DNA of 11,808 nucleotides from Candidatus Cryosericum sp. (GTDB lineage Bacteria; Caldisericota; Caldisericia; Cryosericales; Cryosericaceae), in contig JBNAWM010000045.1 of NCBI GenBank assembly GCA_049699855.1, positions 1-11,808 of the forward strand. Reading direction: 5' to 3'. Positions 10,303 through 10,494 of this stretch are shown piece by piece. The first letter of the stretch is position 1, and the number at the start of each line of letters is the position of its first letter. Under the pieces are notes generated by a model, which worked only from the letters and a program-made list of their open reading frames with translations, had not been told where the DNA came from and searched no databases. The position numbers and the translations under genes are program-made.

Positions 10303-10494
10303 ATGGAAGAAAAAGACTCAAAGAGCGTCCAGGACCATCTCGCCCAGATCACCCAGGGCAAGGCGACGGCCAAGAAGCTGGTCTTCGACCCCCGCACGCA
10401 GGAACTGGTCCTGGTAGACATGCAGGCTTCCCAGCTTTCTCCTGATGCAGTGACCGCCGATGACCCAACCCGTGACGGCTTTTTCACGAGGTGA
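10303..10494 (+). CDS. 63-aa hypothetical protein; candidate modifier or precursor of the E1/E2/JAB system
   Basis: Strong AAGGAGG RBS (10290-10296) 6 nt before the ATG. The ORF fills the gap between E2 and E1, and its stop overlaps the E1 start (GTGA). Confidence 0.8.
   Translation: MEEKDSKSVQDHLAQITQGKATAKKLVFDPRTQELVLVDMQASQLSPDAVTADDPTRDGFFTR

Follow-up and report, generated by a model that had tools for sequence, protein, structure and literature searches.

A candidate 61-residue modifier without a ubiquitin fold, encoded between E2 and E1 genes in Candidatus Cryosericum

According to the accessible parts of the reports on Cap2, Bil and Bub, E1/E2 cascades act on substrates with a terminal Gly or Ala, and their dedicated modifiers are beta-grasp proteins (PMC10097602, 10.1101/2023.09.26.559546, PMC11601596). 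The cGAS of Cap2 operons has Gly or Ala as its last residue, and conjugation is lost with a terminal Ser, Val, Arg or Trp (PMC10097602, accessible part); the E. cloacae cGAS, a Cap2 substrate that is not ubiquitin-like (Ubl), ends in Phe-Ala (10.1101/2022.03.31.486616, accessible part). BilA is cut after a Gly that is followed by up to nine residues (10.1101/2023.09.26.559546), and BubA is also cut after Gly, the Bub modifier often lying within a fusion that the JAB must open (PMC11601596). The Bub E1, BubCD, is described in the same accessible text as having no crossover-loop Cys and a near-invariant Tyr that forms a Tyr oxyester (PMC11601596). In these accessible portions of the Cap2, Bil and Bub literature we found no precedent for a Phe terminus.

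Here, we analysed a window of 11,808 nucleotides from Candidatus Cryosericum sp. (contig JBNAWM010000045.1), in which a short ORF lies between the genes for an E2 and an E1. The gene probably encodes a tiny tag without a ubiquitin fold, belonging to a widespread, unnamed peptide family. Our literature search, confined to main texts, found no description of the operon or the peptide; tables of operons that accompany Iyer 2006 and the Cap2, Bil and Bub reports could list it.

The operon, its peptide and its relatives

The operon reads JAB-E2-peptide-E1, all on the + strand. A JAB/JAMM peptidase of 355 aa (8760-9827, assigned by Pfam, PADLOC and invariant residues) is followed by a stand-alone E2 (9833-10285, from the ATG at 9833; the longest start is the TTG at 9824), by the 63-aa ORF ending in TRDGFFTR that we infer to be a mini-modifier precursor (10303-10494), and by a ThiF-family E1 of 422 aa (10491-11759, Pfam ThiF E 4.7e-32). 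A 12-bp perfect inverted repeat, read from the sequence as terminator-like, stands 3' of E1 at 11781-11808. The original prediction had described a consensus ribosome-binding site, translational coupling of the peptide gene to E1 and a tail without Gly-Gly. All three are borne out by the Shine-Dalgarno AAGGAGG at 10290-10296, 6 nt 5' of the ATG, by a layout in which the peptide stop TGA (10492-10494) overlaps the E1 start GTG (10491-10493), and by a tail in which no GG is present. An EamA transporter gene precedes the operon in Cryosericum. Judging from its translations, the window from 1 to 8655 presumably encodes ABC permeases, adenosylhomocysteinase, a GGDEF protein, exonuclease III, a restriction-endonuclease-like protein, a patatin and serine dehydratase subunits, all ordinary-looking. 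Beyond E1, genes for DnaJ-domain, TPR and PP2C phosphatase proteins lie convergently on the - strand in Cryosericum loci L001, L004, L010, L012 and L013. Two contigs titled Ca. Deferrimicrobium (L014, L019) hold the operon at Cryosericum-level identity (88% for E2) and are possibly mis-binned.

The close relatives are named Ca. Cryosericum or Caldisericota, and the close loci number 19. Seventeen of them have the peptide at the same position with 78-90% identity, each with a GGAG-containing purine stretch 5' of the gene (17/17), and the remaining two, without the peptide, start inside E1. Between the window and these 17 loci, which are kin and whose counts are not independent, there are 137 synonymous vs 3 non-synonymous differences in the hairpin codons 24-39, 132 vs 6 in the tail codons 48-61, and 47 vs 66 in the linker codons 40-47. 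By these codon differences the peptide ORF is a genuine gene, whose hairpin and tail, unlike its linker, are under strong purifying selection.

The AlphaFold2 monomer model of the peptide (pLDDT 73.7, pTM 0.55) shows a helix at residues 3-17, strands at 24-29 and 34-39, a two-residue strand at 50-51 and an unstructured tail. The hairpin (24-39) carries an FDPxT motif and the tail the residues D58-G59-F60-F61. The model agrees with the helix, hairpin and flexible tail proposed from the letters, and also with the proposed lack of a ubiquitin fold: only two strands have at least three residues, and the two residues ahead of the helix are too few to form the pair of strands with which a beta-grasp begins. 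As modelled, the peptide is a helix plus hairpin and not a full beta-grasp; its order of helix, hairpin, short strand and tail may also fit the C-terminal half of one. Searches of solved structures with the model returned weak rows only (best Foldseek E 0.53, best VIA Z 3.1), the ESM Atlas gave no usable match, and 25 members searched against Pfam gave no ThiS or Ubl match.

The JAB matches the PADLOC JAB profile (E 1.6e-11) and, below the cut-off, Pfam Prok-JAB (E 1.4e-4); E53, H114, H116, S125 and D128 are invariant in 15/15 homologues, which amounts to an intact metal site. Its C-terminal region is weakly like an inactive E2/RWD domain (10% probability, E 0.003). The E2 matches the PADLOC E2 profile (E 1.3e-7), PF26395 (E2-CBASS) is found in 15% and 50% of the members of its ESM Atlas neighbours, and Cys104 and Met91-His92 are invariant (16/16). 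The E1 model (pLDDT 92), with Cap2, UBA5 and BubCD as top Foldseek matches, has one adenylation domain and an N-terminal domain that corresponds to the linker of Cap2. Its residues 4-403 superpose on Cap2 169-600 (Z 18.8, rmsd 6.7, 341 aligned), UBA5 and MoeB give a higher score (Z about 27) when the adenylation domain is compared by itself, and the structural neighbours include MccB (Z 22.8) and PaaA (Z 20.8). E1 also has two CxxC pairs and Gly155 in its ATP loop. Tyr317 is present in 144/145 aligned rows, and across the 145 rows the crossover loop has no conserved Cys between C290 and G330.

Two further ideas about E1 were rejected. That its N-terminal domain is an inactive JAB is not supported (0.9% probability in profile comparison), the domain aligning to the Cap2 linker instead, and an F-[F/A] mimic at E1 C-termini is not enriched (11/107 tails vs 6.2 +/- 2.3 shuffled, maximum 16). 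Some E1s (L089-L104, L125, P0039, P0041) end in a modifier-like, acidic F-F-G or I-F-A tail.

An orthologue-level match to E1 (E below 1e-80) was found in 19/22 other Ca. Cryosericum genomes, the three without one being 61%, 83% and 94% complete, and in 0/70 of the other genomes of the phylum (best E 1e-19). E1 is sporadic in other phyla, with 6/401 in the Chitinophagales and 3/401 in the Desulfobacterota genome samples, whose group names are taken from the titles of the centre loci; the Bacteroidota phylum sample gave 2/301, both weaker and different E1s. A search with the single peptide returned 25 matches, Cryosericum-like only, and the family was therefore traced through E1, using 150 representatives and 80 metagenome loci. 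The JAB-E2-peptide-E1 order recurs in distant loci. Among 65 non-Cryosericum loci the module lies directly upstream of E1 or is fused to it in 36; another 24, nearly identical to one another, form a gut lineage that has a diverged ORF of 69 aa at the same position, and in 5 the contig ends too early. With a profile built from 25 peptides, 186 protein matches were obtained, with Chitinophagales, Chryseobacterium, Verrucomicrobiae and Deltaproteobacteria as source labels among the matches listed; the family tail counts below rest on the best 120 of these 186, and the profile favours GFF. Conservation of the FDP.T hairpin and the GF tail in homologous operons had been named as a check on the original prediction, and both are conserved. 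The family is absent from Pfam (25 members searched) and NCBIfam (85 members searched); matches there to Rib/YPDG repeats (best E about 1e-3), weak and unrelated, were discarded as short-motif noise. No viral copy of E1 or peptide was confirmed in IMG/VR. One phage match at E 0.9 was disregarded, and no RNA holder was listed.

In several lineages the module is fused to the E1 N-terminus, as a single copy or as two tandem copies, which makes release by the JAB plausible. It also occurs with N-terminal low-complexity extensions of up to about 195 aa, and this tolerance is expected of a C-terminally reactive tag. On plasmid pREB3 of Acaryochloris marina (NC_009928.1), the module lies among phycobilisome genes in a form of 259 aa that has a long, acidic extension at its N-terminus (L174:5413-6192). 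E1 (L061:5992-7272) is found at a distance of 110 kb, and its annotated neighbours include neither a JAB nor an E2. E1 is fragmented in the assemblies of L018:6001-7184, L111 and L162, and at L091:3669-5157 module and E1 resemble a fusion split by a frame change; either assembly error or decay could account for both. At L170:4406-7421 a related operon has another order, an E2 with a long N-terminal extension followed by JAB and E1, and that extension may be a different fused tag.

The mature C-terminus and E1 residue 155

The original prediction had the JAB cutting after Gly59, exposing RDG. Nearly all pooled family sequences (120/121, from the best 120 of 186 matches) have [DE]-G-F close to the C-terminus, the exception being a 40-aa fragment. 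Among the matches listed, the 96 non-Cryosericum sequences have Phe (77) or Ala (19) at position G+2 and any of 16 residue types or a stop at G+3. The chain stops exactly after G+2 in 12 of these 96 (11 Phe-Phe, 1 Phe-Ala), and a native end at G or G+1 is found in none of the 96, nor in any of the best 120 of 186. Extensions past this end in free-standing forms are variable, from 0 to 17 residues.

Gly59 is invariant in 85/85 near-group sequences. A diverged group, for which 12 fused N-termini were chosen by eye from a distant clade, yields a profile that matches 120/120 free peptides (best 120 of 186) at E<0.01 vs 0 reversed sequences. Profile-profile comparison of this group with the free peptides gave 95%, in a local alignment that reaches residue 51 only; beyond it, the diverged tails were placed in register by hand, with the Phe as anchor. 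In that register 10/12 tails read F-[G/A/S/F], preceded by Met, His, Leu, Lys, Asp or Thr and never by Gly; the other two read Leu-Ser or Trp-Ser, and the gut lineage has Pro-Tyr-Tyr at the tail position. The conservation of Gly59 thus holds in the near group but is lost in all ten diverged F-bearing tails, which keep Phe60, and in the gut lineage.

Residue 61 also varies together with a position in E1. In 40 peptide-E1 pairs, E1 residue 155 is Gly in 21/21 pairs whose residue 61 is aromatic; where residue 61 is small, residue 155 is bulky in 13/19 pairs. Near-group Ala61 pairs have Phe155 in 8/8 cases, whereas 6/11 distant, diverged small-61 pairs retain Gly155, making the rule one-way. Column 155 was picked by scanning about 290 columns, in which it ranked third by separation score and, among the top 14, first by size difference. 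Held-out pairs, many of them kin of the first set, agree (aromatic 12/12, Ala 2/2, 1 unreadable). Three label changes suffice on the tree of pairs, and the Tyr-Tyr/Gly155 lineage is nested in the Ala/Phe155 clade (support 99/91 and 100/96) as a coupled reversal, which indicates that residues 61 and 155 changed together twice. Residue 155 aligns to MoeB Leu42; ThiF and Cap2 likewise have Leu at this position, and PaaA has Trp. Gly41 of MoeB, the neighbour of Leu42, is an active-site residue according to the accessible part of PMC12355090. From this co-variation in sequence, residue 61 is predicted to contact E1 residue 155.

Native stops, divergence and co-variation with E1 residue 155 place the mature end at residue 61 rather than at Gly59. 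We consider Phe61 the most likely end, with moderate confidence, so that Thr62-Arg63 would be the removed extension; the readings other than Phe61 and Gly59 share a small part of our expectation, and Gly59 itself is unlikely. If the JAB did cut after Gly59, the F-F/A would be an obligatory pro-segment and the peptide perhaps the C-terminal half of a beta-grasp. The invariance of Gly59 in the near group would then be explained, known E1 substrates end in Gly or Ala (PMC10097602; 10.1101/2023.09.26.559546, accessible parts), and residues past the Gly have a parallel in the up to nine of BilA (10.1101/2023.09.26.559546). In addition, Asp48 to Gly59 spans 12 residues, the same as from Asp to the terminal Gly in the genome's two MoaD-like proteins. 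Such a cut is nevertheless hard to reconcile with stops that fall after residue 61 and never after 59 or 60 among the matches listed (0/120 of the best 120 of 186), with the replacement of Gly in diverged members and the gut lineage, and with the lack of a ThiS or Ubl Pfam match in 25 members, and it does not explain why E1 residue 155 should vary with residue 61.

A proposed conjugation route, its alternatives and its neighbourhood

Reading the sequences together, we lean towards the peptide being the operon's dedicated modifier, with a mature end at Phe61, trimmed by the JAB, adenylated by E1 and passed to the Cys-E2. The JAB would cut after residue 61, either dropping Thr-Arg or freeing the module from a fused E1 N-terminus. 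The E1 dimer would then adenylate the Phe61 carboxylate, and Gly155, at a position occupied by Leu in ThiF, MoeB and Cap2, would leave space for the aromatic ring. By analogy with Bub, the modifier could pass through an oxyester on Tyr317, or else go straight from the adenylate, to a thioester on Cys104 of E2. The E2 would ligate it to target amines without an E3, and the JAB would reverse the ligation, as extrapolated from Cap2/Cap3 and Bil; the hairpin would be a docking or self-association motif. A modifier handled by E1, E2 and JAB had been the core of the original prediction, which retains its conserved, non-beta-grasp mini-protein tied to these enzymes and probably loses its Gly59 cut site.

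In the Ala/Tyr-Tyr clade, an F[DN]PxTGEL hairpin also starts the gene directly after E1 in 7/8 loci, six of them counted with a pattern loosened to include the gut form and L139 by eye. No such gene follows E1 in 19 Phe-Phe loci, 11 of which are without a same-strand neighbour, or in 4 distant loci. The hairpin-tagged genes (L097:3243-4316, L123:6213-7229, L134:5450-6013 and 6015-6302, L135:1482-1751, L142:3292-4104, L113:6239-6613, and a 73-aa ORF after E1 in L139) have unrelated bodies, which are TIR-like (E 1.5e-5, below the cut-off), membrane or long and beta-rich, and some carry hydrophobic segments. In a six-frame translation of the genome that holds the window (2.36 million residues), the peptide itself is the one place with the strict motif, and thus no hairpin-tagged client is seen there.

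Other neighbours differ between lineages. After E1, on the same strand, the Phe-Phe loci L124:1620-3696, L137:4772-6708, L140:6221-8198 and L141 have an AAA_15/AAA_21 ATPase, with a partner of 190-230 aa that has no Pfam match. A Bradyrhizobium barranii plasmid (L062:4038-10408) carries JAB, E2 and a module-E1 fusion, followed by a SMODS-domain gene that appears frameshifted and by Cap4/SAVED and TIR genes. In Desulfobacterota (L165, L166:186-2909, L167:1291-4086) a P-loop gene of 907-931 aa (HerA/AAA-like) lies directly 3' of E1, and one genome (G1078) has two operon copies. Neighbours of the AAA_15/AAA_21, WYL and SMODS with Cap4/SAVED kinds hint at a defence link, and many loci sit amid housekeeping genes. 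We consider a role in conflict or stress response likely; in Cryosericum the operon is near-core and may have been domesticated.

About as unlikely as the Gly59 cut is that the peptide acts as a non-covalent adaptor, decoy or inhibitor, its tail plugging the E1 site and its hairpin docking, with another protein as the substrate. Frequent fusion of the module to E1, sometimes twice, would suit such a part, as would the same hairpin on the next gene in 7/8 Ala/Tyr-Tyr clade loci and the SMODS, Cap4/SAVED and TIR genes that adjoin the operon on the one Bradyrhizobium plasmid. That plasmid, however, is the single locus in which a CD-NTase-like gene was seen, no candidate substrate apart from the peptide is found repeatedly, the genes that follow E1 differ between loci or are missing, and the genome's MoaD-like genes are on other contigs; the variable extensions of 0-17 residues on free-standing forms fit processing.

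Of similarly low probability is that Phe61 is adenylated to give a RiPP-like product or a small-molecule or lipid adduct, after the manner of MccB/PaaA-type ThiF enzymes or of Atg8 lipidation. It draws on MccB and PaaA as E1 structural neighbours, on PaaA likewise departing from Leu at position 155, and on the loci examined, which show neither an E3 nor a constant effector gene. The RiPP-like precursor, which had been offered as the alternative from the start, loses weight because most loci that offer enough DNA also encode an E2 whose Cys is invariant and a JAB whose metal site is intact. No tailoring enzyme or exporter recurs beside the peptide in the loci examined; an EamA gene precedes the operon in Cryosericum, but distant loci show no recurring exporter. 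That the E1 substrate is instead a beta-grasp MoaD-like protein elsewhere in the genome is not favoured; the MoaD/ThiS-like genes (L172:1438-1707, L173:519-800), whose products end in Gly-Gly-Gly, lie on other contigs in unrelated contexts.

Returning to the dedicated-modifier reading, the full picture is a tentative one, held less firmly than the modifier role itself. A split Cap2-like E1/E2 pair would activate a 61-residue non-beta-grasp tag at a C-terminal Phe (Tyr or Ala elsewhere), the ATP-loop position would read that residue, a Tyr oxyester would hand over to a Cys thioester, and one clade would recruit hairpin-bearing TIR and membrane proteins. If true, a 61-residue helix-hairpin tag with a Phe end extends both the terminus rule and the fold rule, and E1 position 155 against the substrate terminus makes a one-residue specificity code. 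The relay from Tyr to Cys is a possible hybrid between Bub and CBASS chemistries, and the natural Phe-, Ala- and Tyr-ended variants would be orthogonal pairs for protein ligation. Since Pfam and NCBIfam miss the family, other 'orphan' E1/E2/JAB operons may hide such tags.

Comparison with described systems

Pup is a small tag without the ubiquitin fold and is similar in length to the peptide, but it is handled by PafA and Dop and not by E1, E2 and JAB. With MccB and PaaA, its structural neighbours, the operon E1 shares a ThiF fold that acts on non-Ubl peptides; here the peptide has 61 aa and a folded hairpin, and we know of no MccB or PaaA pathway with an E2 or a JAB. Among the operon types 6a-6e, none fits as described in the accessible part of PMC1779556.

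BilABCD of type I/II shares with the operon a set of four genes (modifier, E2, JAB and E1), the lack of an E3 and a JAB that trims a short extension, as given in the accessible part of 10.1101/2023.09.26.559546. In the same description, however, BilA is a beta-grasp ending in Gly, the gene order differs, and BilD has an IAD-AAD-CYS architecture with a catalytic Cys, whereas the operon E1 has a single adenylation domain and no crossover Cys.

The likeness to Bub, again as far as the accessible text describes that system, lies in an E1 with a Tyr and without the Cys, Tyr317 corresponding to BubCD Y370 by position and not by superposition. Modifier fusions are common to both, yet Bub has a Ubl-E2 fusion and the operon family a modifier-E1 fusion with the JAB separate. 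The Bub E2 uses Ser where the operon E2 has Cys104 (16/16), and BubA, unlike the peptide as modelled, is a beta-grasp; it is cut after Gly. DUF6527 (BubE) has no match in the four operon proteins or the upstream gene.

Type II CBASS shares most of the enzymes. The E1 model covers Cap2 minus its E2 domain (residues 4-403), the operon E2 has its neighbours in E2-CBASS clusters, the JAB is of the active type, like Cap3 (PADLOC E 1.6e-11; metal site 15/15), and the substrate is non-Ubl in both. Even the Phe-Ala end of the E. cloacae cGAS, as stated in the accessible text, is the same as in 19/96 non-Cryosericum peptides among the matches listed. The differences are that Cap2 is an E2-linker-E1 fusion, whereas here the peptide gene stands between one gene for E2 and another for linker-E1; that CD-NTase and effector are absent from the four operon genes; that there is a dedicated 61-aa tag with a majority Phe-Phe end; and that E1 has Tyr317 without a crossover Cys, and Gly instead of Leu at 155. 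With its split E1 and E2, no cyclase, a Cys-E2, no DUF6527 and a single-adenylation E1, the operon thus falls outside CBASS, Bub and Bil. By analogy, it may work like a split Cap2 plus Cap3, with the tag replacing cGAS.
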